Source: an uncultured bacterium
GTDB taxonomy: Bacteria; Chloroflexota; UBA5177; JANWHV01
Assembly (NCBI GenBank): GCA_963827235.1
Contig: CAWHAE010000012.1
Location: forward strand, 1,024,001-1,088,000
DNA length: 64,000 bases
Reading direction: 5' to 3'
The stretch's first letter is position 1; each line of letters begins with the position of its first letter. The notes under the pieces were generated by a model. The model saw nothing but the letters and a program-made list of their open reading frames with translations. It made no database searches and was not told where the DNA came from. Positions 7,952 through 30,525 of this stretch are shown here, one piece after another. Position numbers and translations under genes: made by a program.

Positions 7952-8524
7952 CTACCGGCGACCGAGCAGCCTCGCGAAGAGTGGAGTGCCGGACAGCCCG
8001 GGAGCAAGAAACAGCTCGTAGAGCAGGGCCAGGAACACGACAATCGTGGCGAGGGTCATGCCGATAGCCGCGTAGAGCGCGTAGCTGCCGACCGTCCACC
8101 AGCCCCAGGCATTGAGCAGCAGGCCACGCAGGGTCTCGCCGCGGAACAGGGTCTGCACTTCCCCGGCCAGGGCCTGGTTCTTGGGAGCAGCCATGGAGAG
8201 TGCGCTCACCTCGGAGTAGGTCTTGCCGCCGCCGATCTCGCGAAGGTGAACGGCCATGTAGTGATTTGCCCAGGTCTTAGCCTGGTCTCCGTTATCCAGC
8301 GCCTCTCCGGCGTACTGCCGCATGGCCGCGGCATCGGCGGGGGGCAGGGCGGACAGCGAGGGATTATTGGCGGCGGGGAACGTGATATGCTGCGAAACCA
8401 GTTCGTCGTGCACGTACGAATGCGTGAAGTTGGCAGCCCAGTAGAGGAAGCCCGAAACGAAAGCAAGGACGACGACGAGCACAATCTGGAGAGTGATCAC
8501 ACGCCAGCGAAGATCGGAAGACAT
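7952..8524 (-). CDS. Two-TM membrane protein with an extracytoplasmic helical domain (family often loosely labelled LigA-like)
   Basis: N- and C-terminal TM helices around QYAGE.LDNGDQAK.WANHYMAVHL...TLFRGETLRGLLLNAW. Start is 8524 or 8533. Confidence 0.75.
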   Translation of the reverse strand: MSSDLRWRVITLQIVLVVVLAFVSGFLYWAANFTHSYVHDELVSQHITFPAANNPSLSALPPADAAAMRQYAGEALDNGDQAKTWANHYMAVHLREIGGGKTYSEVSALSMAAPKNQALAGEVQTLFRGETLRGLLLNAWGWWTVGSYALYAAIGMTLATIVVFLALLYELFLAPGLSGTPLFARLLGRR

Positions 8525-8740
8525 CGTAACCATCACTTTCTGCGCTGCCGTTTGCACGGGCATGCGCAAGCAAGAAAAGCCCTCCACGTGCGCACCACGC
8601 GCGTTGTATGCTGGTACATGAGAATCGCCGCCCATATGCCGCGGCGACGCATGTCCCTCGAGCAACTGGAACCGCGGCACACACACTCGCGCGATGTGAG
8701 CGACCGCCGTGCTTGCATCCAGGGGACAACATGATCTAAG

Positions 8741-11668: not shown

Positions 11669-12199
11669 CTATTGCAGCGACTTGAGCAGGCCCGCAGCCA
11701 GTTCCTGTCGCTCGGCACTGGTCAGTGCTGCCTTGGGATGCATGAGCGTGTAGTAGCTGGGCGGCATGTCGCCCCTGCTCACCGCGTCCGCTGCCCTGCT
11801 CGCCTGCCGGGCAGGCGATCTGCCGCCGTAGCCAGCGCCGGTTTGCCACTCGGAGAAGTTGAGCCGATTTCGCCCTCTGACCACGTCGTATGTGACCAGC
11901 CACGACACCGGCGCCACGTGGCTGTACCAGGGCCAGGTCGTCGCATTGCTGTGGCAGTCGTAGCAGGCGTCGCGCACCAGCGTCGCGGTGCGGGCGCTGT
12001 CCCAGGTGGGCTGGCCGGTCACCCGCGGATTCGTCTGCAGCAGCCACACCGGCACGAGCTGCGCGAGGACGAACAATCCAATCAAGATCAGCACGAGCCT
12101 CTTGGGGCGCAGCCATGGTCCGTACCACGGTGTCGCACTTCGTTCAGGCAGGCCTCCGCCCGGCATTGTCCTATCAGACGGCCCGCCACGAGACTCCAT
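11669..12199 (-). CDS. Membrane-anchored c-type cytochrome (Haem_bd family)
   Basis: TM, ACYDCHSNATTWPWYSHVAPVSW, LNFSEW, MPP..Y...HP; GAAGGAG RBS. Confidence 0.9.
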   Translation of the reverse strand: MESRGGPSDRTMPGGGLPERSATPWYGPWLRPKRLVLILIGLFVLAQLVPVWLLQTNPRVTGQPTWDSARTATLVRDACYDCHSNATTWPWYSHVAPVSWLVTYDVVRGRNRLNFSEWQTGAGYGGRSPARQASRAADAVSRGDMPPSYYTLMHPKAALTSAERQELAAGLLKSLQ

Positions 12200-12383
12200 G
12201 GTGTGCTCCTTCTTGCTCACAACTCGTACGCCAACAGCCTAGCGTACGCCGAGATGTCCAGTCTATAGGCTGTTGCCGACCAGTCGGCCGTAGCGAGTTC
12301 GCCGGCTCGTCTGGCCCAGCGGCGAGTTCGGCCACCGGTGTGACTACGTCTCCACCGGCAGCCGCACCCAGGGCACAGGGCGC

Positions 12384-12842
12384 CTACATCAGGTGCGCCT
12401 GCTTGAGCGCCGCCAGCAGCGACTGGTAGAATGCCTCGCTGGTCATCGTGGCACCGGAGATGGCATAGATGTTCTTGATGTTGGCCGCGGTCTTGGCCTG
12501 CAGCACTTCCTGGCGCAACATGGGGATGGCCTGGTTGTTGATGAATGCCGAGCGAGCGCGCTCGGTCGGCGCCGTGGCCGAGAGATCGGTGACTGTCTTG
12601 CCCGTCACCACGATGGTCACCTGCACCGGACCCCACTGCATGTTCGCGCTGGGTCCGACATATTTGTGCGCCGATGCCGGTTTCGCCTTCGCCTTGGCGA
12701 CGGGCGTGCGCGTCGCAGTAACCGCGGGCTTGGACGCCTGCGCCACGGAACCATGGGCGGGTCCATACCAGGCCACGGCTGCGGCTACCGGGAGCGCGGC
12801 GATCGTGGTGGCGTATAGGGTGGTACGAAGCTGGTTCTGCAT
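12384..12842 (-). CDS. Secreted FMN-binding (flavinylation target) protein
   Basis: Signal peptide, WGPVQVTIVV and flavinylation motif AISGATMTS. Confidence 0.9.
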   Translation of the reverse strand: MQNQLRTTLYATTIAALPVAAAVAWYGPAHGSVAQASKPAVTATRTPVAKAKAKPASAHKYVGPSANMQWGPVQVTIVVTGKTVTDLSATAPTERARSAFINNQAIPMLRQEVLQAKTAANIKNIYAISGATMTSEAFYQSLLAALKQAHLM

Positions 12843-12885
12843 GGTCTTCTTCTCCATGTGGATCATGCTGTTGGTCGCGCGATAG

Positions 12886-14271
12886 CTAGAGCGCGAAGCG
12901 TTCGGAATGGATGTGCTTGCGCGGCACGTTGGCGCGCCGCAGGTCGCGGTCCACCGCGCGCATCATAGGCGGCGGTCCGCAGAGATAGACGTCGCGGTCG
13001 ACGATGTCGGGCACGAGCTGCCGAAGGTGATCAGGGGAAAGCAGATCGCGGAATTCCGGGCGTGCGTGGTCCCCGAGCACGAAGTGCAACGTGAAGCCGC
13101 GCTCCTGTGCCAGCCGCTCGAGCTCCTCCCGGAAGACGAGATCCGTAGCCGAGATGGCCCGGTAGATGAGGGTGAGATCGCCCGGCATCGCCTCCGCCAT
13201 GGCGCGAATCGGCGTGATACCGATGCCGCCTGCGATGAAGAGCACGCGCTCGCAGCGCCGCGCCACGTCGGTGAAGACGCCGAACGGCCCTTCGGCAAGC
13301 ACGCGCGTGCCGGGCACAATCTCGCCCACGCGGCCGGTGAAGTCTCCGGAGGCCTTCACGGTGATGCGCAGCGACCGCTGCCCGGAAGCCTCGGAGAGCG
13401 AGAAGGGGTGGCACTCCCACCAGCGGCCCCGGCTGAGAAAGCGCCACAGAAAGAACTGACCCGGACGCACGCGGAGCCGCTCGAGGCCGCGGCCCGTGAT
13501 GCGCAGGGATACGACGCCGGGACTTTCGACAACCACAGACTCCACGCGCATGCGGTAACGCAGCGCCTGGCCGACCGGCATCAGGATCCGGAACCACACG
13601 AGCACCGCGGCCGTGGCGACGTAGAGCGACGTCCAATAGGTCGCCGCGGCCGGGTTCGCGGTCAGCTCGTTGCCGGTTGGGATCTGGTGAAACCAGGCAA
13701 GGGCGATGCCCAGGTACACCAGAAGATGGACCGCATACCAGGCCTCGTAGCGGAAGTGCCGGCGCACGATGACCAGTGAGGTGACCACCGTGCCAATCAT
13801 CACCACGGTGCCGATCGTGGCCGCGATCATGCCCGGGTAGTCCAGAACCAGGCGCGAAATCTCGGTGGGGACCACGACCTGATCCATCGACGCGTAGCCG
13901 ACGGTGATGAACACCACGTGTGCGAGCACCAGACAAAGGCAGAGTTTGCCATTGAGCCGGTGCCAGACCGTGAGCCGGTCGAAACCAAGTGCACGCTCAA
14001 GCCAGGGCAAACGAGCGAGCAGCAGTACCTGGATCAGGGCCAGGTAAGCGCTGAGCAGCCCGGTCAGCCGCCCGATACTGGTCCACAGGTCTCCCCAGCC
14101 GTGCACTGCAGAGATGTTCTTGCCGGATACCCAGAGCCACACAATCGCCAGCGCGTTGGCCGTCACGATCGCTGCGAGCGCCCAGGCAGGCGCGGTCCGG
14201 GAGTCCGGGCCTCGGCGGCGCGCCGTGACGAGCCGGCTATCCCGCCAGTTCTGTGCGAGTCCCATGCTCAT
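12886..14271 (-). CDS. Ferric reductase-like TM domain plus FAD/NAD-binding oxidoreductase
   Basis: Six TMs with His ligands (WHRLNG, LAHVV, VHLLVY, WFHQ), plus PGQF, HPFSLS, IAGGIGITP, YLCGP and ERFAL. Confidence 0.92.
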   Translation of the reverse strand: MSMGLAQNWRDSRLVTARRRGPDSRTAPAWALAAIVTANALAIVWLWVSGKNISAVHGWGDLWTSIGRLTGLLSAYLALIQVLLLARLPWLERALGFDRLTVWHRLNGKLCLCLVLAHVVFITVGYASMDQVVVPTEISRLVLDYPGMIAATIGTVVMIGTVVTSLVIVRRHFRYEAWYAVHLLVYLGIALAWFHQIPTGNELTANPAAATYWTSLYVATAAVLVWFRILMPVGQALRYRMRVESVVVESPGVVSLRITGRGLERLRVRPGQFFLWRFLSRGRWWECHPFSLSEASGQRSLRITVKASGDFTGRVGEIVPGTRVLAEGPFGVFTDVARRCERVLFIAGGIGITPIRAMAEAMPGDLTLIYRAISATDLVFREELERLAQERGFTLHFVLGDHARPEFRDLLSPDHLRQLVPDIVDRDVYLCGPPPMMRAVDRDLRRANVPRKHIHSERFAL

Positions 14272-14277
14272 CGCGGC

Positions 14278-14364
14278 TCACCCCACCCAGCTTGGGTTGG
14301 ACATTAGGAAGCGTCGTAGCGACCTCGCACGTGACTGCATGCCACGTTTCATGGTGCTGTTCAT
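14278..14364 (-). CDS. 28-aa upstream ORF or leader peptide
   Basis: GGAGGT RBS; MNSTMKRGMQSRARSLRRFLMSNPSWVG; its TGA is in frame with ATG 14271. Confidence 0.35.
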   Translation of the reverse strand: MNSTMKRGMQSRARSLRRFLMSNPSWVG

Positions 14365-14713
14365 GGCACCTCCATCGTTGATAGTGGTGAAAGATGCGCC
14401 GTTGCAAGATGTGAGGATCTTGCTCCGAGGCCCACAGACTCAGGCATGGTGCGGAACGCCGCGTTGCTGGCCGGCAAAGCGACGCCGTCCCGGCCCACCA
14501 CGCGGCGCAGTTAGCACGACGAGATCTGCATGCCGGCGCGCCGGCGACGTCATAGTCGCAGCTCGCAGTGCACGCGGGTCGACGTGATCTGTTCCGGCGC
14601 GGTGCCGGGCGGGCGATGGGGCCGCCCGTATTTCAACAGTACAGTCCGGCCATGAAGAATCGATGACGGTGGCCATGACAATTCGATGACACACGCCGTC
14701 GAGCTTCCCGGTG

Positions 14714-15250
14714 CTACAGGTGGGCGGCTGCCAGAGCCGCCTGAAGCGATCCGAGGTACGACTCGCTCGTGTACGTGGCGCCGGAGACGGCATTGATGTT
14801 CGCGCTTTGCGCCTGCAACGTCTCGCTGCGCAGGATCGGTACGGCCTGCGAATTAATGTAGGCGGAGCGCGGATTATCTTGCGGCGCTGTGATGATCGCG
14901 TCGGTGATCTTGTTCCCGGTAACGACCAGGGTGACTTGCACGGTTCCGAACCGGTTCTGTTCGGCAGTCCCCGTGTAGGTCCGCGCTGCGCCTGACGTCG
15001 AGGTGGCGGCGCCGGAGGCTGTCGCTCCTCCCGCACCGGACGAGCCGCCCGAGGCGGCGCTGCCCGCCGTGGGCGTGGCCGCGGAGAGAGCCGTCGTTTG
15101 CCCGGGCGACTGCCGGGGCGCCAGAGCCACAAGCTGCGTCGATGGCGATGCATGTGCCAATATCTCCGCCGCGGTGACCACCGGTATTGCCGTAGCGGCC
15201 ACCACCATCGCGGCCGGAATCAGTCGAGACGCCTTGCTTCGTGATTTCAT
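14714..15250 (-). CDS. Secreted FMN-binding protein, second paralog
   Basis: Signal peptide, S/G/A/T linker, FGTVQVTLVV and AVSGATYTS. Confidence 0.9.
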   Translation of the reverse strand: MKSRSKASRLIPAAMVVAATAIPVVTAAEILAHASPSTQLVALAPRQSPGQTTALSAATPTAGSAASGGSSGAGGATASGAATSTSGAARTYTGTAEQNRFGTVQVTLVVTGNKITDAIITAPQDNPRSAYINSQAVPILRSETLQAQSANINAVSGATYTSESYLGSLQAALAAAHL

Positions 15251-15265
15251 ATCCAGGTCTTCTTA

Positions 15266-16732
15266 CTAAAACGCGAACTCGTCGACATGGATCAGGGCTT
15301 TGGGCACGCCCAGCCTGAGCAGGGCACGCTTGAGAGACCGAATCATGCCGGTCGGGCCACAGAGGTAGACGTCGCGCGTCGCGATATCGGGTACCAGGCT
15401 GCGCAGATGCTCGCGGGACAGCAGATGGGCATTACCCGGGATGCGACGGTCGCCCAGAACGTACCGGATTCGCGCGCCGCGCTCGCGGGCAAGGCTCTCC
15501 AGCTCGTCCCGAAACACGATCTCTCCGGCGTGGCTGGCGCGGTAGATGAGCACCACGTCGCCCTGCATATCTTCCAACAGCGCGCGGATGGGCGTGATCC
15601 CCACACCGCCGGCGATCAGGGCCACGCGACCCTGCGTCCGCGCTTCCTTCGTGAAGGAGCCAAACGGGCCTTCTGCCATCACGAACGTGCCGGGCTTCAC
15701 GCGGACCATGTCCCTGCTGAAGTCGCCAAGGGCCTTGATTGTAATGCGGAACGACCTGCCGTCTGGGGCGGCCGAAAGCGAGTACGGGTGAGATTCAAGC
15801 CAGCGTTCGCGGTCGAGGAATCGCCAGAGGAACCACTGGCCGGGCCGCGCGTTGAGCCAGTCGAGATGGTGCCCGCTGATGCGCAGCGACACTACGCCGG
15901 GTCCCTCGCGCGTGACCTCGGTCACGCGCATTCGATGCCAGAGGAAGCCAACCAGCGGTTGGAGCACGCGGAACAGTACTACGAGCTGGAGGGTGGCTAC
16001 GTAGAGCGCGGTCCAGAAGGCCGTGGCCAGAGGGTTGCCAAGAAGATCGGCGCCGGTCGGCACCTGGTGAAACCAGGCAAGGAATATGCCCAGGTAGGCC
16101 ATGAGATGAACAAGGAACCATGTTTCGTACCGCATCCGCCGACGGACGATCACAATCGACGTGACCGCCACCAGAACCAGGAGCACCGTGCCGATAAGGG
16201 CCTGCATCATGCCCGGATAGGCGCTCAGGAATGAGCCGGCCTGTGCCACGATGGAGATACGGCTCTGTTGAGCGTAGCCGGCTGTGATGGTGCCAACGTG
16301 TGCAACGATCAGCCCCAGGCTGACCTTGCCGTTCAGCCGATGGCGCTTCATCAACCTGTCGAAGCCCACCGTCCACTCCAGGAAGGGCAGTCGAGCCAGC
16401 AGGAGAATCTGCAGCAGGAGCAGGTAGGAACCGAACAGACCGGTAAAGCGGCCGATGCTGATCAGGAGAGTGGCGGTATCGTGCACGCCGGAAATGCCGC
16501 CGTCCTTGAGCCAGAGCCCGGCGATGATCGCGGCGATGCCATAGAACACCAGCCGCAGACTCCAGGTCACGGTGTCCTTCAGCTCAGCGGTGTCGCGGTG
16601 CTGCGACCGCACCACGGCATTGCCGGGGCGAGACGCCATCCGCGCCACGGGTCGCGTGGGTTCGGCGCGGCGGCTCGCTCCGGCCAGTTGCCGTGATGGG
16701 CGGGCCAGTCCCACGGCAAGGTCGTTTTGCAT
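15266..16732 (-). CDS. Ferric reductase-like TM plus FAD/NAD-binding oxidoreductase, second paralog
   Basis: RHRLNG, VAHV, VHLMAY, WFHQ, PGQW, HPYSLS, IAGGVGITP, YLCGP and DEFAF. Confidence 0.92.
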   Translation of the reverse strand: MQNDLAVGLARPSRQLAGASRRAEPTRPVARMASRPGNAVVRSQHRDTAELKDTVTWSLRLVFYGIAAIIAGLWLKDGGISGVHDTATLLISIGRFTGLFGSYLLLLQILLLARLPFLEWTVGFDRLMKRHRLNGKVSLGLIVAHVGTITAGYAQQSRISIVAQAGSFLSAYPGMMQALIGTVLLVLVAVTSIVIVRRRMRYETWFLVHLMAYLGIFLAWFHQVPTGADLLGNPLATAFWTALYVATLQLVVLFRVLQPLVGFLWHRMRVTEVTREGPGVVSLRISGHHLDWLNARPGQWFLWRFLDRERWLESHPYSLSAAPDGRSFRITIKALGDFSRDMVRVKPGTFVMAEGPFGSFTKEARTQGRVALIAGGVGITPIRALLEDMQGDVVLIYRASHAGEIVFRDELESLARERGARIRYVLGDRRIPGNAHLLSREHLRSLVPDIATRDVYLCGPTGMIRSLKRALLRLGVPKALIHVDEFAF

Positions 16733-16815
16733 CAGTCTATTTCCCTTCAGTGCAAGCAGCGCGCTCAAGTCCGGCGCAGCAGCGCGCAGTCAAACATCGT
16801 AGTGGTCGTGTCTTG

Positions 16816-16859
16816 AGGATAAAGAACGCGGGTGATGAACTCGTGATGGATTTATGACA
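16816..16859 (-). promoter_or_regulatory. Direct-repeat (OmpR/PhoB-like) box plus -10 for the reductase operon
   Basis: Minus strand TGTCAT-N5-CATCAC-N5-CATCAC-N10-TATCCT. Confidence 0.65.
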
Positions 16860-16935
16860 CGAAGATTACAGGCCAGACTGGCGCTGTTGCCTAGCCCGGC
16901 GGCAATTCATCGTACCCGCCGGCCCACCAAATTCC

Positions 16936-16968
16936 CATCATAAATCGTTCATCATCGGCTCCTACGAT
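16936..16968 (+). promoter_or_regulatory. Direct-repeat box plus -10 for the Rieske/cupredoxin operon
   Basis: CATCAT-N5-GTTCAT-N10-TACGAT. Confidence 0.6.
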
Positions 16969-17011
16969 GTGAATCATCACAGAGTTGCTGACGTGAAAGG
17001 AGATTCGTACG

Positions 17012-17953
17012 ATGCGGCAACACAGCTTAAGCCAACTATCCGCCGAGGGCTCGACCGGCGCCGAGCAGGTTTGCCGATCACCTCTGCAGCCCAGAGATCA
17101 GACGGCTAGCCGATGCCCAGGTTGCACGGCTCACGCCGGCGGACCATCGCGATGCGCGCATTCGACTCCCGCGGCGCCCACGGTCAGACGGTCCACCTTC
17201 ATGCGTGCGCTTGGCGCCGCGGCCGGTCTATTCGCCGCGAGCGGCGATTTGGGCTCGATCGCGCGGGCCGCGACGAAGCAAGCACCGGCTGGTTCCAGCG
17301 CGGCCGCTGCCGGGCCGGGCCGGTACCTTGGCAGCGTCAAGTCGCTGGCCGCCAAGCAGGCCGCTATCTACACCGACCCTGCGAGCGGCGATCCGGCCAT
17401 GCTCATCCACCTGGCCAACGGCAAGTACGTGGCCTACGACGCGGTCTGCACGCATGCAGGCTGCACCGTGCAGTTCGATCCTAAGCGCCAGCTGATGGTC
17501 TGCCCGTGTCACGGCGCGACCTACGACCCCGCACAAGGTGCCAAGGTGCTCGGCGGGCCGACCAGCACTCCCCTGGCAGCCCTGGCAGTGCGCGTCGATG
17601 CCGGCCAGAACGTATACGCCCTCGACGCCAAGTCCAACGGCTCGCAGGCAAGCCAGCTCAAGCAGCCGGCGCCCTACACAGGTCAGACGGGCGACGATGG
17701 CGGCTCAAGCACTGGGCGAGGCGCAGGGGATGATGGCGGCACGGGCGGTGGCGGCGACGGCGGCAGCCGCGCACTGCGCACGAGCAGAACCAGGTTGAGC
17801 GCCAGCCAGACCCGGCTCAGTGTGAGCAGCTCGCCGCGCCGCGCAACCACCGGAGCGAGAAGGCCGCGCAACCGCCGGCGGCCCGCCGGCGGCGTGCCAC
17901 GACTCACTGACGACTCGATCGCACTCCGCTCCCTGCAACACGAATCAGTATGA
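17012..17953 (+). CDS. Tat-exported Rieske [2Fe-2S] protein
   Basis: AAGGAG RBS, RRSTFMRALG Tat-like motif, CTHAGC and CPCHGA; low-complexity C-terminal tail of uncertain frame. Confidence 0.85.
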   Translation: MRQHSLSQLSAEGSTGAEQVCRSPLQPRDQTASRCPGCTAHAGGPSRCAHSTPAAPTVRRSTFMRALGAAAGLFAASGDLGSIARAATKQAPAGSSAAAAGPGRYLGSVKSLAAKQAAIYTDPASGDPAMLIHLANGKYVAYDAVCTHAGCTVQFDPKRQLMVCPCHGATYDPAQGAKVLGGPTSTPLAALAVRVDAGQNVYALDAKSNGSQASQLKQPAPYTGQTGDDGGSSTGRGAGDDGGTGGGGDGGSRALRTSRTRLSASQTRLSVSSSPRRATTGARRPRNRRRPAGGVPRLTDDSIALRSLQHESV

Positions 17954-17979
17954 CCAATTATCCGACGAGGAGAAGGCAG

Positions 17980-18528
17980 ATGAAAAGCTCCCTCAGAACG
18001 GTCAGCGCGGTGCTGGCAGGCGCCATTCTCGTCTCCGGCGCGCTCGTAGGCTATGCCGGGCTGGGCAGCGGCCGGGCTGCCACGATCGCCCGCGCCCCGG
18101 CCTGGGCCGCATACACGGCTGCCACGAAGACCGCCCACTTGACGCTCATATCGTCGTACGGCACGGATACGTACAACTTCAACGGCGGCAAAGCCGGTCA
18201 CTTCACCTTCACCGTTCCGCTGGGGGCCAAGGTGGTCGTGACCTACTCGAACCAGTCGGCCATGATGCTCCACGGCGCCGAGGTAGTGGCATGGACGGGC
18301 GCGCTTCCCACCGCCGTCGTGCCCCCACCGCCGGCGTTCGCCGGGGCGTTTTCGCCAAACTACCGCCACGGCACGCCAAAGGGCGTCACCCAGACCTTCA
18401 CGTTCACGGCCAATAAGGCGGGCAAGTACCTGCTGATCTGCCCAGTGCACAATCACGTGAAGTTCGGGCATTGGGGCTGGTTCGTCGTCTCCAAGACGGC
18501 AACCACGGCGACGGGTGTCCTGAACTGA
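17980..18528 (+). CDS. Secreted cupredoxin (sulfocyanin/rusticyanin-like)
   Basis: Signal peptide, YNFNG, VP.GAKV.VTYSN...H, FTANKAGKYLLICPVHNHVKFGH. Confidence 0.8.
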   Translation: MKSSLRTVSAVLAGAILVSGALVGYAGLGSGRAATIARAPAWAAYTAATKTAHLTLISSYGTDTYNFNGGKAGHFTFTVPLGAKVVVTYSNQSAMMLHGAEVVAWTGALPTAVVPPPPAFAGAFSPNYRHGTPKGVTQTFTFTANKAGKYLLICPVHNHVKFGHWGWFVVSKTATTATGVLN

Positions 18529-18766
18529 GTGGCATGAGCGAACGGCGGACACTGCACTCCCCGCCGCCCGCTCGCCGGAGCACTTGCGGCATTTCCGCAT
18601 ACGATGACAGCCTCGATCTAGTGGCGCAGTCCGGGCTGCTGCCGGCGGCATCGGCATCCCACACTGGGACGCCGATGCCGCCGACGAGCACATCCGCGCC
18701 GGCCGTCCAGCCAGCACCGTAGCGGCACCCAATCAGCGAGGGCTGGGATTGCGGGTCTGAAGCAAC

Positions 18767-20113
18767 ATGCGATTTCGATTGGATTCAGTGCGGTGGTCTC
18801 GGCATGGCGCCGTGGACGCCGACCACCGCATCGTGAGCGCCGTGGCGCGCCGCCTCGCACTCATCACCACGGCATCGCTCGTGGGTCTGGTGGTCGCCAT
18901 CCTGGCCGTGGTATTCGTGACCACCCGATCCGCGATGGAGCGGTCCCTGAGGGACACCCTTCGCTCTCGCGCCGGCGCCGACGTCAGGCTCCTGGTCGAC
19001 TCCGAGCAGCCGGGGAGGGTTGGCAACGATGGCGGCGATGCCGGTGAGGCCCTGCAGAACACGGCCGAGTCCGAACTGACCTCCGGCGGGGTGTTTCTGG
19101 TAGTCGCCAACTCGAAGCTCAGCGTGCAGGGTGGGAGCCTCAGCGTCTTCAAGGGACGGATTCCCGATCCGAGTACGGCGAAGATGGTCCTGGAGGACCG
19201 CGCGCAGACGTTTTCCACCATCGCTCCTCCGCAAAGCGATCGGTATCTCATCTATACAATCCCTCTTCAGGAAGGCACCAGGACCCTGGGCGTCGCCCAG
19301 CTGGGCGTGTCTCTCCGCCAGTACGACGCGAGCGTGAGCACCATCCTGCGCGATGTCTTGATCGCCAGCGCCGCGGGCGTGGCCGCCGCCGTGGTGATCA
19401 CGCTGATTGTCGTGCAGCGCGCAATGCTGCCTATCCGGCGCTCGCTCCGGCGGCAGCGGGACTTCGTGGCCGACGCCGCGCACGAGCTGCGCACGCCGGT
19501 GGCTATCATGCGTACTGCCGCCGAGCTTGGGCTCGAAAGTGATGATATGGCCGAGCTACAGTCGGCCCTGGAACAGGCCCTCGCCGAGAGCGTCCATCTC
19601 GCGCGCCTGGTCGACGACCTGTCCCTGCTTGCCCATGCAGACAGCGGCGTGCTCAGCCTCGAGCGCGAGCAGATGGATCTGGCCTCGATGGTCCGCGATG
19701 CCGTCTCAGGTGTAGAGCTGCTGGCGGCCTCGCGCGAGGTGCATCTGACCACCGAGGCGCCTCAGAGCGTGTCCGTACGCGGCGATCGGGTCCGGCTGCG
19801 CCAGCTCGTCCTCATTCTTCTCGACAACGCGCTGAAGCACACGCCGGATGGCGGCACGATCAGCGTGCGCGTGCGCACCCAGGGCAGCCGTGCGGTCCTA
19901 GAGATCCAGGACTCGGGTCCTGGCATCGATCCCAAGGACCTGCCCCACCTATTCGACCGTTTCTACCGCGGAGCCCGCGAGCGCGGAATCTCCGGGGGCG
20001 GACTGGGACTGGCCATTGGGCGTTGGGTCGCCGAGGCACATGGTGGGCAAATCGCGGCGGCAAATGCCAGCCCCCGGGGTGCCAGGTTCACGGTTGCCCT
20101 GCCGCGCGCATGA
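18767..20113 (+). CDS. Membrane sensor histidine kinase (OmpR-partner type), no adjacent response regulator
   Basis: Two TMs; H box FVADAAHELRTP; N box ILLDNALKH; DSGPGI; FDRFYR; GLGLAI. Confidence 0.95.
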   Translation: MRFRLDSVRWSRHGAVDADHRIVSAVARRLALITTASLVGLVVAILAVVFVTTRSAMERSLRDTLRSRAGADVRLLVDSEQPGRVGNDGGDAGEALQNTAESELTSGGVFLVVANSKLSVQGGSLSVFKGRIPDPSTAKMVLEDRAQTFSTIAPPQSDRYLIYTIPLQEGTRTLGVAQLGVSLRQYDASVSTILRDVLIASAAGVAAAVVITLIVVQRAMLPIRRSLRRQRDFVADAAHELRTPVAIMRTAAELGLESDDMAELQSALEQALAESVHLARLVDDLSLLAHADSGVLSLEREQMDLASMVRDAVSGVELLAASREVHLTTEAPQSVSVRGDRVRLRQLVLILLDNALKHTPDGGTISVRVRTQGSRAVLEIQDSGPGIDPKDLPHLFDRFYRGARERGISGGGLGLAIGRWVAEAHGGQIAAANASPRGARFTVALPRA

Positions 20114-20277
20114 TTCACCCGACCGCACTCCCGGCATGCTGGAGCTGATACATCCACGGCAGTACTTTTGTGTTCTTTGCGCGCACGCGTGCCGTTGATA
20201 GATTAGGCATGAGCTCGCTAGGCAAGGTTGAGCATCGGCTCATTCGGCGCCCGTCGTGCTGGAGGATTCCGGTGGTC

Positions 20278-20868
20278 ATGCTGCCCGATCAGAACAGGAA
20301 GTATGGCGCGTCGATGAGGTTGGTCGCCGCGCTGCCACTCGTCGTCGTACTGGCTGCAGGCATTACGCTCCTGATTCACTTCGCAGCACCCAGCCAGTCG
20401 AGCTCGGGATCGTCCGCGACCTCAGCTGTCTCGACGGTGACGGATAGCCCGTCGGGCCAAGCGCCGGAGGCGAGCGTCACCTACCCGGGTGCCGCGGACA
20501 TCACGATCCACGCGGGCACGGTTGCCAGCATGACCGCTTCGGATCCGCTCAGCGCGGGAATGGCGAGCCAGGTTTCCGCGGCTGCCAAACAGTATGCGTC
20601 GGCGCCGGTGACGAGCATCCGCTTCGGTACCACGGACGATCCATCCACCGTCCTCAGCTGGTACAACGGCTGGCTGGGTGGGCGGGGTTGGTGCGCGCCG
20701 TCGATCGCCAACACGAATCCCGACCTGCACGTCTACGTTCGCGCGCAGCGCGACGCCTACGCCCTGATCATCCTGTCTGTGCCGTCGCTCACCGGCGGCA
20801 GCGACGGATCCAGCGTCATCGCCTCATACCTTCAGCTGCCGGCGGCCGGCGCGTTCCCGGCGTGCTGA
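20278..20868 (+). CDS. Hypothetical membrane-anchored or secreted protein
   Basis: Hydrophobic N-terminus, Ser-rich linker, YPGA and TTDDPSTVLSWY; start uncertain (20278 or 20314). Confidence 0.6.
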   Translation: MLPDQNRKYGASMRLVAALPLVVVLAAGITLLIHFAAPSQSSSGSSATSAVSTVTDSPSGQAPEASVTYPGAADITIHAGTVASMTASDPLSAGMASQVSAAAKQYASAPVTSIRFGTTDDPSTVLSWYNGWLGGRGWCAPSIANTNPDLHVYVRAQRDAYALIILSVPSLTGGSDGSSVIASYLQLPAAGAFPAC

Positions 20869-21378
20869 CGTCGTTTTCTGCCTGTCTTGTGTGCCGTGCT
20901 AACGTCATTCTCCACGTCCCATCTGTGCACGCCCTGGATCCAGGAGGGCTATGCCTGGAGAGCGCTCGTGAAGCCGCCGAGCCTTAGGTCAGGCTATCTC
21001 CGTTGGCCCGCGCACCAGTCGCCGTGCTGCGAATGCCGCAGGATTGACTCGACCGGAACTCATGACGACCCGATGAGCCGCCCGCGTTCATTGCAGCGAT
21101 AGATCCATTCACCTTTTCCGCAGGCGCGGGGCTCCGCCCTGAAACCATCGCGGGCGCGGCAGCCGTCCCTTACCATCCTCATATATTGCGGTTGGAGATA
21201 TGCGCCACACCCGGCCGCAGCCGGCCCGTTCCTGCCATCCTGCGGCAGCTGGGGGCCCCGTGCCACCGGTCCCGTTCCCGTTCCCGGGAAGGCAATCCCC
21301 CAACCGCTGCCATCCGGCCTCAGTCGAAGGCCTCGTCCTCGCCGCGACGGGCGGCCAGGCCACCTGCCGGGCGCGCCG

Positions 21379-22464
21379 TCAGATCGCGTAGGCGTTGCCC
21401 TTCGAGTCCACCTTGACGCTCAGCGTGGCGAGCGGCTGTTGCGCGGGACCGTTGATCACAGCGGCGGCGCGGGTTGGATCGTAGGCGGCGCCATGACAGG
21501 GGCAGATGATCTGCTGCTGCGTGGGATCGTACTCCACCGTGCACCCGGCGTGCGTGCAGACGGCATCGTAGGCCACGAACTTGCCGCTGGCAAGGTGAAT
21601 GAGCAACGCCGGATCGCCGGACTGCGGATCGGTGTAGGATGCCGCGCTGTTCACCGCCAGTGACTTGACGCTGCCCAGCAACGTCTGGCCGGCTTGCGCG
21701 CTGCCTGTGCTCGCTGCGCTGGATGCCGAGGTGGCGGGAAGTGCGGCCGACGTGGCGGCAAGTGTGCTGCTGGGACTGAGGAGCTTGGCGATGGCGCCCA
21801 CCAGAGCCCCGCCCACCATGAGCCCGGCAGCGGCACCCAGTCCACGTATGGCGGCCTTCCGTGGCACCAAATCGATGGTCGACGGCGCGGGGATGAGCGA
21901 TCTGCGCCGTCCGCGTTGCTGCATCCGAGCCCGCTCACTCGCCTGCATGCGCGCCGCGTTGAAGAAGTAGTTATCGAGCGTCAGGGCGTCCGGGCCGGCG
22001 AGCGCCAACGTCAGCCAGCCAAAGGCGTACGGCAGGTCGGCGCCCAGGAAGTACGGATGGGTCGACCAGGTGGCCGTGAGGTAGAACGTGAGGCTGGTGG
22101 CAAGCCCGCCGAGAGCGCCGGCGCGGGTGAGCAGGCCGAAGAGCGCAGACAGTCCGACCCACACCTCGCAGAGGGCGATCAGGGCGCCGAATTCCTTGGC
22201 GTGAGGAATGGCGACGGCGGTGATCAGACCAGAGAGCGGCGAGCCCGCGCGTACGAAGCCACCCATCTGGTGCCCGATAAAGCCGGGGGCAGTGGCGCTG
22301 AAGAACTGCGGATCGGTGAGCTTCTGCAGACCGGCGTAGAGAAAGGTGGCGCCAATAAAGAGCCGCAACGGAAGTAACACCGCCGAAGGCAGCCTGCGTG
22401 GATCGCTTCTCACTCCGAGAAGGTCCGGCAACCGCTCGAAGACTTTGTCCGTATCAACCATCAT
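21379..22464 (-). CDS. DoxX/DoxD (TQO small subunit-like) membrane protein fused to a Rieske [2Fe-2S] domain
   Basis: LPLRLFIGATFLYAGLQKL and E..VGL..L.GLLTR DoxX motifs; C-terminal CTHAGC/CPCHGA. Confidence 0.9.
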   Translation of the reverse strand: MMVDTDKVFERLPDLLGVRSDPRRLPSAVLLPLRLFIGATFLYAGLQKLTDPQFFSATAPGFIGHQMGGFVRAGSPLSGLITAVAIPHAKEFGALIALCEVWVGLSALFGLLTRAGALGGLATSLTFYLTATWSTHPYFLGADLPYAFGWLTLALAGPDALTLDNYFFNAARMQASERARMQQRGRRRSLIPAPSTIDLVPRKAAIRGLGAAAGLMVGGALVGAIAKLLSPSSTLAATSAALPATSASSAASTGSAQAGQTLLGSVKSLAVNSAASYTDPQSGDPALLIHLASGKFVAYDAVCTHAGCTVEYDPTQQQIICPCHGAAYDPTRAAAVINGPAQQPLATLSVKVDSKGNAYAI

Positions 22465-22529: not shown

Positions 22530-22562
22530 AGCTTAATCGACGGACATGATGAGGGAATGATG
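22530..22562 (-). promoter_or_regulatory. Direct-repeat box plus -10 for doxX-Rieske
   Basis: Minus strand CATCAT-N5-CATCAT-N10-TAAGCT. Confidence 0.65.
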
Positions 22563-22874
22563 AAACGCGGTGCCTGCATGCTGTTGGCTGCCGGTTGGTC
22601 GTGGCGGAGACGATGGCGGTGCTGCACCGCGCCTATGTCCCGTCTCAGGGCGTGCCGCTGCCCATGTCGAGCGCACCGGCACGCACAGTCAGGGGTGTGA
22701 CGAGCTGGCCGGCACCTCGCCAAACAGAGGAGGCACGGCCTCCGGCGCCCGTCGCTCCGTGAGCGCGAGGATGCATAGAGATAGAGGGAGTCGCCGCCGT
22801 ACCGTCGACGACAAAGAGGTGCGTAGGGCAGTTGTTGGGCACCGGTGCCGAACAATAGAGATCCGGTCGATCAA

Positions 22875-24269
22875 CTACTGCCGGTCGGTATCAGCCCCCG
22901 CGCCGCGCGTGCAAACCACCACTGTGGTCGTGTCACCTCGACCGGAGTGGCAGCGCGTATGCTGGGCATGGGCCTGCGCCGTGTGCGGCAGCAGAACCGT
23001 CATGCCCAGGAGCAGCGTGCCGAGCGCGGCAATCCTCGCCGAGCGCGCTTTCATGCTTCCGCCTGACGTTCGCAACCAGCGCAGCGCGTCACCAGCCAGC
23101 CGATACACGCCGGCGGACCATGCAGCCGGCCGCAGTGGCGCTGCGCTCCGCACTGCGGCAACTGCCACCCGCGAGCGTGCACTGGCGCGCCGGCATTGTA
23201 ACGCAAGGTCGAGTCCCCTGACCTGGCTCATGGCCAGAAATGCGCGAGCCTCGGGCCCCGAGAACCGGCGGTTCAGGCCGGCAAACCCACCGGCCAGCAC
23301 CCGTCCGCCTCCGATCGCCAATATGCCCAACAAGCTCAGCTTGGTCAACGGATCGAGCGCCCGCACGGTGAGGGCCGCGGCAAGACTCGTGGTCACCGGC
23401 ACGCCGGTGGCGTGTGACAGTAGCACGGCAACCGCACTCTCGCTGACGCCGATACCTTCGGGCACGAAGAATGCCAGCGAGCCCAGCCCCGAAGCCAGGG
23501 CGGCAGAGCCGATCACTGTGCCCAGGCCGACCGCCACGCCCGGGCTCATGCTGGAGAGCGCCACGTAGAGCGCACCCACGCCCATCACCCACGACGCGGC
23601 ACTCCATGGCACGATCGCGAGCAGGTGCCGGGCCGACAGCCTAGGCCCATCGCAATCCCGGCCGGGAACGCTGCCCAGCAACGCACGCGCCAGTCGGCTG
23701 CGCGACGCAGACGCCGAGGTGAGGGCTCTGAGCACGAACAGCATGACCGCCGCCAGGCCGAGCAATACCAGGGACACAGCCAGCGGCCCCTGCCCCCCTA
23801 TCACCGGCAGCGAATGGTCCACGCCCGTGCGGGCCAGGACGGGCAGTCCCAGCGGCGTCCAGACCAGGATGCCGCAAAAACCGAGCGCGTTGGCCATCAA
23901 CGTGAGCAGCGCCGCCCTGCCCGGCGAGACGCCGTGCTTTCGCAGGCTTGCCGCGGATCCGAGCGCGGGTCCAACCGAGTTCAGCACGTAGCCGCCAAGA
24001 CCGGCGCTGAGATAGGCCGCCAGCGCCGCGCGGAACGGCAGCGGATGCCCGAGGCGATGCAGCATCCGCCACCACTCCACGCCGCTCAGAATAGCCGCGG
24101 TGCTGCCCAACGCCACCACGGCGAGCAGGGTGGCGAGCCCTATGTGCGTCAGCGCTGCGAGCATGCTCGCCGCCTGCGTCTGCACGCCGCCGCGCGTCGC
24201 GACGGCCAGGACCGCTGCGGCCAGAACGATCCCCACCGCGAATGGCCACCTGCCCAGCTTGTCGTGCAT
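22875..24269 (-). CDS. Lysylphosphatidylglycerol synthase TM / flippase-like (UPF0104) membrane protein
   Basis: Multiple TMs, EWWRML and FFVPEGIGVSE (P.G.G..E motif); C-terminal extension uncertain. Confidence 0.75.
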   Translation of the reverse strand: MHDKLGRWPFAVGIVLAAAVLAVATRGGVQTQAASMLAALTHIGLATLLAVVALGSTAAILSGVEWWRMLHRLGHPLPFRAALAAYLSAGLGGYVLNSVGPALGSAASLRKHGVSPGRAALLTLMANALGFCGILVWTPLGLPVLARTGVDHSLPVIGGQGPLAVSLVLLGLAAVMLFVLRALTSASASRSRLARALLGSVPGRDCDGPRLSARHLLAIVPWSAASWVMGVGALYVALSSMSPGVAVGLGTVIGSAALASGLGSLAFFVPEGIGVSESAVAVLLSHATGVPVTTSLAAALTVRALDPLTKLSLLGILAIGGGRVLAGGFAGLNRRFSGPEARAFLAMSQVRGLDLALQCRRASARSRVAVAAVRSAAPLRPAAWSAGVYRLAGDALRWLRTSGGSMKARSARIAALGTLLLGMTVLLPHTAQAHAQHTRCHSGRGDTTTVVVCTRGAGADTDRQ

Positions 24270-24341: not shown

Positions 24342-24386
24342 ATCGTGCACCGGCATGATGATCGACCGATGATGGGACGAATGATC
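24342..24386 (-). promoter_or_regulatory. Direct-repeat box plus weak -10 for the flippase-like gene
   Basis: Minus strand GATCAT-N6-CATCAT-N5-GATCAT-N10-CACGAT. Confidence 0.5.
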
Positions 24387-24693: not shown

Positions 24694-25162
24694 ATGAATG
24701 TCCCGACGCTTCGCGCCGCCACGTGCCGCGATTGGCCGTGCATAGCGGCGTTGCTGGTGGAGTCGTCCTTGCCGCTCGCCGGTGCCGAAGAACACGCGGG
24801 CGACTTCACCGTGGTGGAAGAGAGCGGCGCGATCACTGCCTGCGCGGCTCTCGAGCGCTACGGCGATTCCGCGCTGCTGCGATTCTGTAGCCGTGGCTCC
24901 GCTCCAACGCGGCCGCGGGCTCGGCGCTCGCCTGGTGCGCGAGATGCTCGATCGAGCGGCGGCCGCCGGTTGCCGCCAGGTGGTATTACTTACCACCACC
25001 GCGGCCGCGTATTTCACACGGTTCGGCTTTCGCGTCATTGAGCGAGGCGATACGCCTGGGCCCGTGCAGGCATCCGTCGAGTTCTCCAGCGCCTGCCCCG
25101 TTTCCGCGGTCGTGATGTCCTGGAATGGGCGAGAGGCATCCGACCCCGGCATCGGAGGCTGA
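24694..25162 (+). CDS. GNAT N-acetyltransferase, ArsN2-like; frameshift at ~24883
   Basis: ALERYGDSALLR joins SVAVAPLQRGRGLG...LLTTTAAAYF.RFGF...SVEFSSACPVSA after removing one T. Confidence 0.8.
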
Positions 25163-27014: not shown

Positions 27015-27243
27015 TCGACATAACTCGGATAGCGGGATCCCCGGCTGGCGAATCCTGTCCCACGGGCTGAGTGTCACGAGGCTATGCAATCGGGCCATGC
27101 CAAGGCGCGGGCGGAGTAGCCTCGTCTTTGTACCAGCTGAGCGAAATCGCTCACGCCCAAGCTCTCTGTTGTCTGAAGTGACCATATGTCACATAATTGT
27201 TGGGGCTGCTCTCGTGCGCGTTCGCGGTTTTCGAGGTCGGTGC

Positions 27244-30200: not shown

Positions 30201-30525
30201 CGCGCAGCTGATGCATGAGGGCCTGTCCGTGTTGCGCCGGAGCGGCGAGCGGGCCATGGGTGTGGTGATCCTTTCCAGCTTGCCGCCGTCGCTCGCCGCC
30301 CGCCATCACCCCGAGACAGCCACACTGCTGTACGGGGCGCTGGCTGCCGACCACCAGCGACACCGGTGCAGTGAGGCCGTTCCATACATGGCCAGGCTGC
30401 ATCGCCGGATGCGGCCGGTAGCCGACGTGCTGTCCGAGCGTGCGTTCAGCGACCTCCTGGCGCGCGGACAAACGATGGTCCTCGACGAGGCAATAGACGC
30501 GGTCCTGCCGTGCGCGCAGGACTAG
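27244..30525 (+). CDS. DUF6788-wHTH/BTAD-ATPase-TPR regulator (AfsR/SARP-like); frameshifts at ~27953 and ~28897
   Basis: YRRCGKAACLRC..GHGPYWY; LY.GEYLPGDLYDEW; DP.HEDAAARLM; Walker A GIGGCGKT; VLDNCEH; LAGIPLALELAAAR; DWSY; TPR-like helices. Spread over three consecutive ORFs. Confidence 0.85.

Follow-up and report, generated by a model that had tools for sequence, protein, structure and literature searches.

The E. coli MsrPQ system is regulated by HprSR, and in the MprAB and CssRS envelope regulons HtrA lies beside the regulator pair. The MsrQ-like systems and the bacterial NOX homologues are widespread, and iron uptake is the default guess on their purpose. In MsrQ-like flavinylation systems an apbE gene in the cluster is typical though not universal. 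Reduction by the bacterial NOX homologue SpNOX is slow with Fe3+ and fast with cytochrome c, and its authors suggest that a protein is the acceptor (PMC11564096, in the passages used here).

The redox gene set described here lies at 11669..22464 of the window, which is the whole stretch of 64,000 nucleotides analysed. It differs from the MsrQ-like systems of Méheust et al. 2021 (PMC8238504), in whose main text the words 'Rieske' and 'Chloroflexi' are absent, in having two tandem pairs that come from different clades, an ApbE encoded in trans, an OmpR-type box in common, and Rieske, cupredoxin and cytochrome c neighbours. Its flavocytochromes share four heme His and the NADPH motif, and FRE1 strictly the FAD motif too, with SpNOX as characterized in the passages used of PMC5676040 and PMC11564096, but here candidate acceptors are encoded alongside. 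The titles and abstract openings of the papers found do not describe this combination of parts.

Results

The set consists of four transcription units on both strands. The Pfam profile search and the residue check confirmed every part that an earlier note on this DNA had placed within 11 kb. The genes, with one neighbor just outside the redox set at the end, are these:

11669..12199, minus strand: membrane-anchored monoheme Haem_bd cytochrome c (PF14376, E 3e-34; CYDCH; one membrane anchor)
12384..12842, minus strand: FMN-binding protein 1 (FMN1), secreted or anchored (PF04205, E 3e-8; SGAT at 129)
12886..14271, minus strand: FRE1, MsrQ-like/NOX-like flavocytochrome b (PF01794, PF08022 and PF00175)
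14714..15250, minus strand: FMN-binding protein 2 (FMN2; PF04205, E 7e-7; SGAT at 156)
15266..~16732, minus strand: FRE2, second flavocytochrome b (PF01794, FAD and NAD domains; start 16639 or 16732)
17012..17953, plus strand: stand-alone Rieske [2Fe-2S] protein (PF00355; CTHAGC...CPCHG; low-complexity tail)
17980..18528, plus strand: SoxE-type, sulfocyanin-like cupredoxin (PF06525; rusticyanin fold in the model, pLDDT 93)
18767/18812..20113, plus strand: OmpR-class sensor kinase with no adjoining regulator (HisKA/HATPase)
21379..22464, minus strand: DoxX/DoxD membrane domain with a C-terminal Rieske domain (PF04173, PF07681, PF00355; alignment)
22875..24269, minus strand: lysylphosphatidylglycerol-synthase TM-family gene (PF03706)

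The window has neither an ApbE gene nor a response regulator, and both sit elsewhere in the genome. Rfam gave no match within the window. The note had taken the genes for an electron-transfer island, but the relatives do not support their co-conservation as a single unit. Among 21 genomes of the class, many of them fragmentary, the full 11-kb set is complete in the source genome (G000) only. A flavocytochrome accompanies 1 of 80 DoxX-Rieske loci, and a cupredoxin, cytochrome c or cytochrome b none.

The copy in G001 is decaying, with an FRE fragment of 71 aa and an FMN2 remnant. What recurs is pairs of modules, in varied orders and in three families; in G004 a single box on one strand is followed by a row of Rieske, FMN protein, regulator, kinase and FRE. 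The redox genes are real, yet they are separate modules and not one conserved island, and seen as an 'island' they make a modest finding, since such an arrangement is peculiar to this lineage.

The flavinylation motif is [S/T]GA[S/T]. Both FMN proteins carry SGAT and both pairs put a PF01794 protein beside an FMN-binding gene. FRE1 has the heme His H104/H118/H182/H195, HPFSL and GIGITP, and its best PDB match is SpNOX (E 4e-18). FRE2 likewise has four heme His, and its FAD domain scores 21.2 bits (cut-off 22). Two His-x12/14-His motifs, the NADPH motif and at least three TM helices, by which Hajjar 2017 defines a bacterial NOX, are present. The NOX FAD motif H[PSA]F[TS][LIMV] is matched by HPFSL of FRE1 but not strictly by HPYSL of FRE2, which in this departs from SpNOX.

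Judged by these motifs, the flavocytochrome-FMN pairs belong to the known MsrQ-like/NOX-like systems, and covalently bound FMN and electron transfer driven by NAD(P)H are predicted for them. FRE1 and FRE2 are 55% identical and fall into different, strongly supported clades of the tree, and a recent tandem duplication is therefore rejected. The genome has two apbE genes on other contigs, and both their promoters are boxed (ranks 13 and 30). The Haem_bd gene has no box of its own (promoter rank 3781) and is probably transcribed by read-through from FRE1-FMN1; in G001 and in G004, too, it lies behind or flanking a gene of the FRE1 type. A generic sigma-70 scan recovered none of the boxed promoters, and in the same scan no terminator appeared between FMN1 and Haem_bd or between the cupredoxin and the kinase.

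The Tat consensus is the twin-arginine S/T-R-R-x-F-L. Where the note had a 'Tat Rieske', the Rieske part holds, with both Rieske boxes including the disulfide cysteines, but the Tat signal is a degenerate one, and most aligned relatives read R-[S/A]-x-F there; TatC is encoded. The domain is 67% identical to the Rieske domain of the DoxX fusion. The gene is not in an operon with cytochromes b and c, the nearby cytochrome b operon being a separate unit.

The predicted copper ligands of the cupredoxin are H98, C154, H159 and axial H164, where Met is usual. The fold and the His/Cys/His ligands are like those of sulfocyanin, rusticyanin and auracyanin, but the axial position differs. In the alignment it is His in all 37 close relatives having an intact loop, whereas in a more distant set of 145 representatives Met alone occurs in 117 and His in 3. 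An ESM Atlas search returned only sulfocyanin-like clusters. The Rieske and cupredoxin genes adjoin in 6 of 8 loci and are fused in one, and in the fusion the axial position is Glu. Complex prediction of the two proteins gave no answer (score 0.02). The pairing of a Rieske protein with a sulfocyanin-like cupredoxin having His for the axial Met is new.

The DoxX-Rieske protein resembles KSE_30950, the five-TMD Sec/Tat Rieske protein of Tooke et al. 2017 (PMC5449189), in being polytopic, in its C-terminal Rieske domain and in a Tat-like motif that precedes the last helix. In the text of that paper on KSE_30950, the words 'DoxX' and 'DoxD' are absent.

The promoters share a box of the OmpR type, TCAT-N7-TCAT-N10-TAnnnT. 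We ranked 5,370 promoters of the source genome with a matrix built from 7 promoters of another family (f3), used instead of a first matrix that took in same-genus promoters. The boxes at the locus are these:

14636..14692, minus strand: four TCAT half-sites (spacing 11/12/11) and a -10 element, upstream of FRE1 (rank 4 of 5,370; exact pattern)
16816..16871, minus strand: weaker box upstream of FRE2 (rank 49 of 5,370; position 16849 scored by the first matrix too)
16938..16968, plus strand: box and -10 element upstream of the Rieske-cupredoxin(-kinase) unit (rank 8; exact pattern)
22530..22563, minus strand: box and -10 element upstream of DoxX-Rieske (rank 17; exact pattern)
24342-24375: box of the lysylphosphatidylglycerol-synthase TM-family gene (rank 20)

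Five of the top 50 promoters lie within 12 kb, a concentration attained by 0 of 2,000 random draws. The seed pattern was picked by eye from promoters including the window's own, which leaves the window ranks not fully independent, and related genomes do not count as independent either. The FRE1 box is conserved in both G001 copies. Among FRE promoters of relatives outside the training set, 18 of 39 score at least 14, against 0.68 (maximum 3) when shuffled and 17 of 1,499 background promoters. The exact pattern occurs 43 times in five relatives and 3 times in the reversed control, and 13 times versus 1 in three genomes outside any training. The prediction of co-regulation, on which the note had rested its idea, passed this computational test.

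In the class, 7 of 17 DoxX-Rieske promoters score, one being a training site. Beyond the class the box all but disappears from such promoters, with 6 of 72 scoring and 3 of 72 on the control strand.

The other top ranks are largely envelope genes: MacAB (3 and 21), HtrA (5 and 18), SecG (10), NlpC/P60 (14), the PF24878 YkcB-like loci (19 and 23) and a flotillin operon (35). Among the 7 HtrA-like genes only 2 are boxed, as are only 2 of the 5 YkcB-like loci; a ykcB-like target is boxed in G001 too, as are GT-C glycosyltransferases in G001, G007 and G013. The top 30 also has apparent noise (HicB 6, TetR 15) and the metal-related CDGSH (24) and OFeT (29). The third FRE ranks 703. The Pho regulon was rejected, as pstS ranks 1186 and has TTAAC repeats instead of the box.

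The kinase subfamily is present in 18 of the 21 class genomes. The box precedes its regulator-kinase pairs in G000, G001, G007 (twice), G011 and G013. The likely cognate regulator in the source genome is frameshifted in the assembly; frameshifts affect both the regulator and the kinase on C9. L186 and L185 have intact regulator orthologues.

Discussion

On balance, we favor that the box marks an envelope-stress regulon exporting reducing power, and that the region gathers its separate modules. An OmpR-family two-component system, of the subfamily to which the window kinase belongs and with its regulator in trans, would under cell-envelope stress activate promoters in which TCAT-N7-TCAT stands ten bases ahead of the -10 element. 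Electrons would pass from NAD(P)H via FAD and two b hemes across the membrane to covalent FMN on the secreted partner, attached by the boxed ApbE encoded elsewhere. The likely next acceptors would be anchored one-electron carriers, namely the monoheme cytochrome c and the Rieske protein with the His-axial cupredoxin, while DoxX-Rieske may be a parallel entry, probably quinol-fed. These transfer steps and the final acceptor we infer. Of the note's extended NAD(P)H chain, the flavocytochrome-FMN pairs fit an MsrQ-like system. A single continuous chain stays hypothetical, and the lone cytochrome c is monoheme.

The purpose would be upkeep of envelope proteins and cofactors, beside HtrA proteases, YkcB-like glycosyltransferases, MacAB and lipid modification. 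Among the three uses that the note had offered, envelope maintenance fits best. HtrA adjoins the regulator pair as in the MprAB and CssRS regulons. As in E. coli MsrPQ, an MsrQ-type heme protein would be controlled by a CusR/HprR-like regulator, but the three MsrP-like genes of the source genome are neither adjacent nor boxed (ranks 205, 255 and 3085). The B. subtilis YclJK regulon similarly puts YkcB-like glycosyltransferases under OmpR-family control, but a redox arm of the present kind is absent from its description in the part of PMC7961091 used. The common box joining the flavocytochrome systems, apbE, DoxX-Rieske and Rieske-cupredoxin with HtrA and envelope glycosyltransferases offers a testable answer that differs from the default guess.

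A metal-handling reading would keep the same box and modules, but the FRE-FMN pairs would serve uptake by reducing Fe3+ or Cu2+, and metal would be bound or oxidized by the His-axial cupredoxin. MsrQ-like systems have been proposed as iron reductases and 153 clusters come with VIT1 (PMC8238504, main text). VIT1 is near DoxX-Rieske at three loci (L161, L050, L032), OFeT is behind FRE-FMN-ApbE in G035 as well as in the top 30 here, the G001 island has CopC (box 17.1) and a CDF transporter, and the profile that the regulators match best is that of the heavy-metal subfamily, TIGR01387, with a score below its cut-off. However, the VIT1 genes of the source genome rank 2300 and 4921 and its CopC 467, the annotated boxed genes are mostly envelope genes, and the outer domain of the window kinase has no His or Cys. 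Also, the ferric reduction by SpNOX was judged possibly non-physiological (PMC11564096, passages used). We consider metal handling unlikely.

Quite unlikely is a low-oxygen adaptation, close to the view of the note, in which a branch for alternative respiration or extracellular electron transfer takes in the neighboring cytochrome b operon. YclJK, which controls ykcBC in B. subtilis, is upregulated when oxygen is low (PMC7961091, part used), and in G007, G010, G011 and G016 the distance between the operon and an FRE, FMN or DoxX-Rieske gene is about 20 kb or less. But the promoter of the operon has no box (rank 3164 of 5,370) and only 1 of 13 in relatives scores, at a site inside coding sequence, so counting this module as part of the set is not supported. 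In G001 the operon is on a separate contig, and in 8 of 14 loci of relatives a GAF/HisKA_3 kinase and a NarL-type regulator of its own come after it. The canonical Rieske/cytochrome b/cytochrome c set on another contig (C5) is also unboxed (rank 287), and the region has no multiheme cytochrome or terminal reductase.

Chance gathering of functionally unrelated modules, with the box a generic promoter feature, is very unlikely: the complete set in a single genome and the decaying G001 copy suit it, but the box enrichment, the recurrence of pairs and the Rieske-cupredoxin fusion do not. A thiosulfate:quinone oxidoreductase feeding sulfocyanin, as in acidophile sulfur oxidation, we reject as highly improbable, for although DoxD (PF04173) passes its Pfam cut-off, SoxE (PF06525) matches and databases name such fusions 'thiosulfate dehydrogenase large subunit', the NCBIfam DoxD score is 28.5 bits (cut-off 300) and that of sulfocyanin (TIGR03094) 47.8 (cut-off 168.4), the commonest DoxX-Rieske neighbors are regulators, kinases and HtrA, and a DoxA subunit or domain occurs in 0 of 21 class genomes.

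Within the envelope-stress regulon, a narrower reading is tentative. The cupredoxin, with a copper site that is naturally Cys/His/His/His, may make up with the Rieske protein a previously undescribed redox pair outside the cytoplasm, fed by the NOX-like flavocytochromes via the flavinylated partners under one envelope-stress regulator. If true, it names physiological protein acceptors for bacterial NOX homologues. Azurin Met121His is the engineered counterpart of such a site, by a title cited in PMC4059628. As the cupredoxin is small and soluble, its predicted natural axial His is accessible to spectroscopy.

Gene content and conservation

The ~11-kb redox set at 11669..22464 holds every gene that the earlier note had listed, each found by profile searches with its cofactor motifs intact. 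It comprises four units: FRE2-FMN2 (minus strand), FRE1-FMN1-Haem (minus), Rieske-cupredoxin-kinase (plus) and DoxX-Rieske (minus), where FRE denotes ferric-reductase-like flavocytochromes, FMN their SGAT FMN-binding partners and Haem the Haem_bd cytochrome c. Haem and the kinase are probably transcribed by read-through from their upstream genes. FRE1 and FRE2 share 55% identity; in a tree of 45 rows, built without frameshifted copies, they belong to different clades, both with strong support.

No response regulator lies within the window. The window is C12:1024001-1088000 of its genome (G000; 8.0 Mb, 95.9% complete, 9% contamination), whose proteins have Chloroflexota-labelled sequences as closest named relatives, so that the host probably belongs to this phylum. 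In G000, the ApbE genes sit outside the window on contigs C9 and C16, a third FRE-FMN pair on C9 and a canonical Rieske/cyt b/cyt c set on C5; the genome also encodes TatC and a cytochrome c assembly protein. Other features in the window are as follows.

7952-8569 (-), unannotated membrane protein family; also divergent, just 5′ of the cyt b operon, at L028, L150, L151 and L154
9587-11587 (+), neighbouring cyt b operon
14278-14364 (-), 28-codon ORF with a ribosome-binding site within the ~365-nt FRE1 leader; both copies in the same-genus relative G001 retain the start and roughly the length but differ in sequence
20278-20868 (+), 196-aa secreted protein without Pfam match, G000 paralogue or promoter box
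24694-25162, ArsN2 acetyltransferase, split across frames
27097-30525, AfsR/SARP regulator, split across frames

The latter two splits, and that in a regulator-kinase pair at 741-743 kb of C9, may be assembly indels rather than true pseudogenes.

Class-wide, most parts of the set are common. Among 20 relatives, 18 have a match to FRE, 14 to DoxX-Rieske (partial matches counted) and 14 to the second cyt b gene. With G000 counted, ApbE and the kinase subfamily were each matched in 18/21 genomes, and Haem_bd and close cupredoxin orthologues (>50%) each in 4/21. FRE-FMN-ApbE are adjacent in 10/20 relatives. The complete set occurs in G000 only among the 21 class genomes, many of them fragmentary.

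In G001 (20 contigs), the Rieske-cupredoxin-kinase stretch matches that of G000 at 75% DNA identity across 3.2 kb. The locus keeps DoxX-Rieske and FMN1 with a 71-aa FRE1 fragment and an FMN2 remnant, and inserted there are CopC, a CDF transporter and what is left of a regulator. An intact FRE1-FMN1-Haem unit lies ~95 kb from this locus and the cyt b operon on a different contig. In other genomes, these parts recur rearranged. The order is RR-HK-FRE-FMN-c7-DoxX-Rieske-RR-HK in G007 (RR, response regulator; HK, sensor kinase), with ApbE nearby, and Rieske-FMN-RR-HK-FRE in G004. DoxX-Rieske is divergent to Rieske-cupredoxin in G006.

Among the best 80 of 516 confirmed GTDB DoxX-Rieske loci (flanks of at most 10 kb and often less; tblastn E≤1e-5), a full FRE occurred in one, a locus of the window's class, and an FMN protein in one, while the cupredoxin, Haem and cyt b were each found in none. 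By contrast, 24 of these loci have regulators, 21 have kinases, 12 have HtrA and 5 have ApbE. As a single island, the set of the earlier note is not co-conserved. In the actinobacterial loci L076, L082, L084, L086-L088, L090, L100, L106 and L107, htrA is directly 3′ of DoxX-Rieske, and the fusion is present in Bathyarchaeia too (L081, L085, L108).

Promoter box and predicted co-regulation

A recurrent upstream pattern was TCAT-N7-TCAT with a TAnnnT element after ten bases. Activator sites of the OmpR family typically have an 11-base period beside the -10 element. The seed was picked by eye from a set containing the window's own promoters, and the scoring matrix, built from seven promoters of the relative family f3 only, was applied to 5,370 G000 upstream regions.

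Promoter ranks among 5,370 G000 upstream regions (f3-only matrix)
Promoter: rank
FRE1: 4
Rieske unit: 8
DoxX-Rieske: 17
LPG-synthase gene adjoining the set: 20
FRE2: 49
cyt b operon: 3164
DUF5666: 2
MacAB-type transporters: 3, 21
HtrA: 5, 18
HicB, TetR (likely noise): 6, 15
Peptidase-amidase operon: 9
SecG: 10
apbE, both genes: 13, 30
NlpC/P60: 14
YkcB-like glycosyltransferases: 19, 23
GH76: 22
CDGSH: 24
OFeT: 29
Flotillin operon: 35
Second LPG-synthase gene: 60

Five of the top-50 sites are inside 12 kb, which 0/2,000 random draws reached. Outside the training set, 18/39 class FRE promoters score at least 14; dinucleotide-shuffled versions gave 0.68 (at most 3 in 100 shuffles) and random G000 genes 17/1,499. 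DoxX-Rieske promoters score in 7/17 cases, one being a training site. In five relatives, the exact pattern was counted 43 times (reversed control, 3), in G005, G011 and G013 together 13 times (control, 1) and in G000 21 times, 3 of them inside the set. By matrix score, the box is nearly absent outside the class (6/72 DoxX-Rieske promoters versus 3/72 on the control strand). The FRE1 box has four repeats, kept in both G001 copies. Of the cyt b operon promoters in relatives, only 1/13 scores.

Regulator-kinase pairs from the same subfamily as the window's kinase have the box in front of them in G001, G007, G011 and G013; therefore, we infer autoregulation by this two-component subfamily. A G000 pair on C9 is boxed and divergent from htrA, and is frameshifted in the present assembly. 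The regulators' best profile matches are CusR, RppA and HprR, all under the cut-off. A Pho box was rejected because pstS carries no box.

Two other sites were noted. The third FRE-FMN pair (G000:C9:143083, L004) has an MprA-like TCTCAG-N5-TCTCAG repeat, and a genome scan gave no second site of this kind ahead of a nearby gene. A TATA.CCA.nGTGGATATA-type palindrome lies near DoxX-Rieske or c7 genes at L027, L028, L030, L032, L142 and L250, in three loci with a divergent PadR-family gene, and may mark a second regulator of DoxX-Rieske in part of family f3.

The 40 proteins that we annotated are mostly encoded directly at, or downstream of, high-ranking G000 sites, and the table entries from DUF5666 onward belong to the boxed set. 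Relatives, too, have boxes at GT-C glycosyltransferase and MacA-like genes. Against an envelope regulon, the boxed share in G000 is 2/7 for HtrA-like genes and 2/5 for YkcB-like loci. By genome-wide promoter scoring, the G000 MsrP-like, VIT1 and CopC genes have no box. The ykcBC genes of B. subtilis are under the control of YclJ, which low oxygen induces (available part of PMC7961091). In G011, NAD(P) transhydrogenase genes lie, together with a small gene, behind a box (L208:386-3929) and may supply the flavocytochromes with NADPH.

Cupredoxin and its Rieske partner

The cupredoxin model has a rusticyanin-like fold (pLDDT 93). Its ligand loop, Cys154-x4-His159-x4-His164, places His at the usual Met position when aligned with auracyanin and rusticyanin, and His164 is a predicted copper ligand. 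Of 39 close relatives retrieved, 37 have an intact loop, and His is axial in every one of these. The residue is Gln or Met in 11/13 outgroup proteins and Met in two aligned paralogues, and among 145 more distant representatives the counts are 117 for Met alone, 9 for Gln, 4 for Leu and 3 each for His and Glu. The three distant His proteins (P0112, P0140, P0197) have a different loop context.

In the available part of PMC4059628, the axial residue is usually Met and sometimes Gln or Leu, and the azurin Met121His mutant gives a type-1.5 site. No natural axial-His case was found in a literature search covering few subscription journals.

The Rieske gene is directly 5′ of the cupredoxin in 6/8 informative loci (G000, G001, G006, L157, L159, L161) and not at G014 and L160; L158 is a duplicate of the G006 locus, L162 a truncated locus and L163 a spurious match. 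The G004 Rieske has no adjoining cupredoxin. As an indirect linkage measure, 15/39 cupredoxin rows versus 0/13 outgroup rows are on a contig equal in size to that of a stand-alone-Rieske row. P0054, a single sequence on one contig, fuses both domains (56% and 57% identical) and has an axial Glu.

Ser after CPCHG raises the Rieske redox potential. Since Ala replaces it in 29/38 Rieske domains, a lower potential is suggested.

Proposed mechanism and neighbouring genes

The core of the region is a known kind of system, as far as described in the available parts of PMC8238504 and PMC11334425. The earlier interpretation is partly supported, for co-regulation by computation but not for a co-conserved island. 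Neither the predicted regulon nor a His-axial cupredoxin paired with a Rieske protein turned up in the literature searched, which took in PMC8238504 without its big supplementary table of clusters.

Both flavocytochromes, FRE1 and FRE2, are built like NOX/MsrQ proteins, with SpNOX as the best structural relative. In the available part of PMC11564096, SpNOX reduces cytochrome c much more rapidly than Fe3+ and is proposed to have a protein as its acceptor. In the simplest model, electrons would pass from NAD(P)H through FAD, two hemes and covalent FMN to anchored carriers, and this export chain would be switched on jointly with envelope-maintenance genes.

DoxX-Rieske would be a parallel, quinol-fed entry. 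It has a Tat-like motif ahead of its last helix, for which KSE_30950 is the comparison case (available part of PMC5449189). Its assignment as TQO was rejected because DoxA is absent from all 21 genomes searched.

The cyt b operon is a separate conserved four-gene unit of a 54-aa peptide, a cyt b6-like protein (four His), a 330-aa protein without Pfam match and an 81-aa peptide. A GAF/HisKA_3 kinase and a NarL-type regulator are 3′ of it in 8/14 relatives' loci, not in G000.

The c7 protein, without G000 match by tblastn, is an unannotated ~200-aa membrane protein with three conserved His (L024:8425-9021, L025, L027, L034, L142, L139); it may itself be a b-type cytochrome partner. In G007, it is boxed and upstream of DoxX-Rieske.
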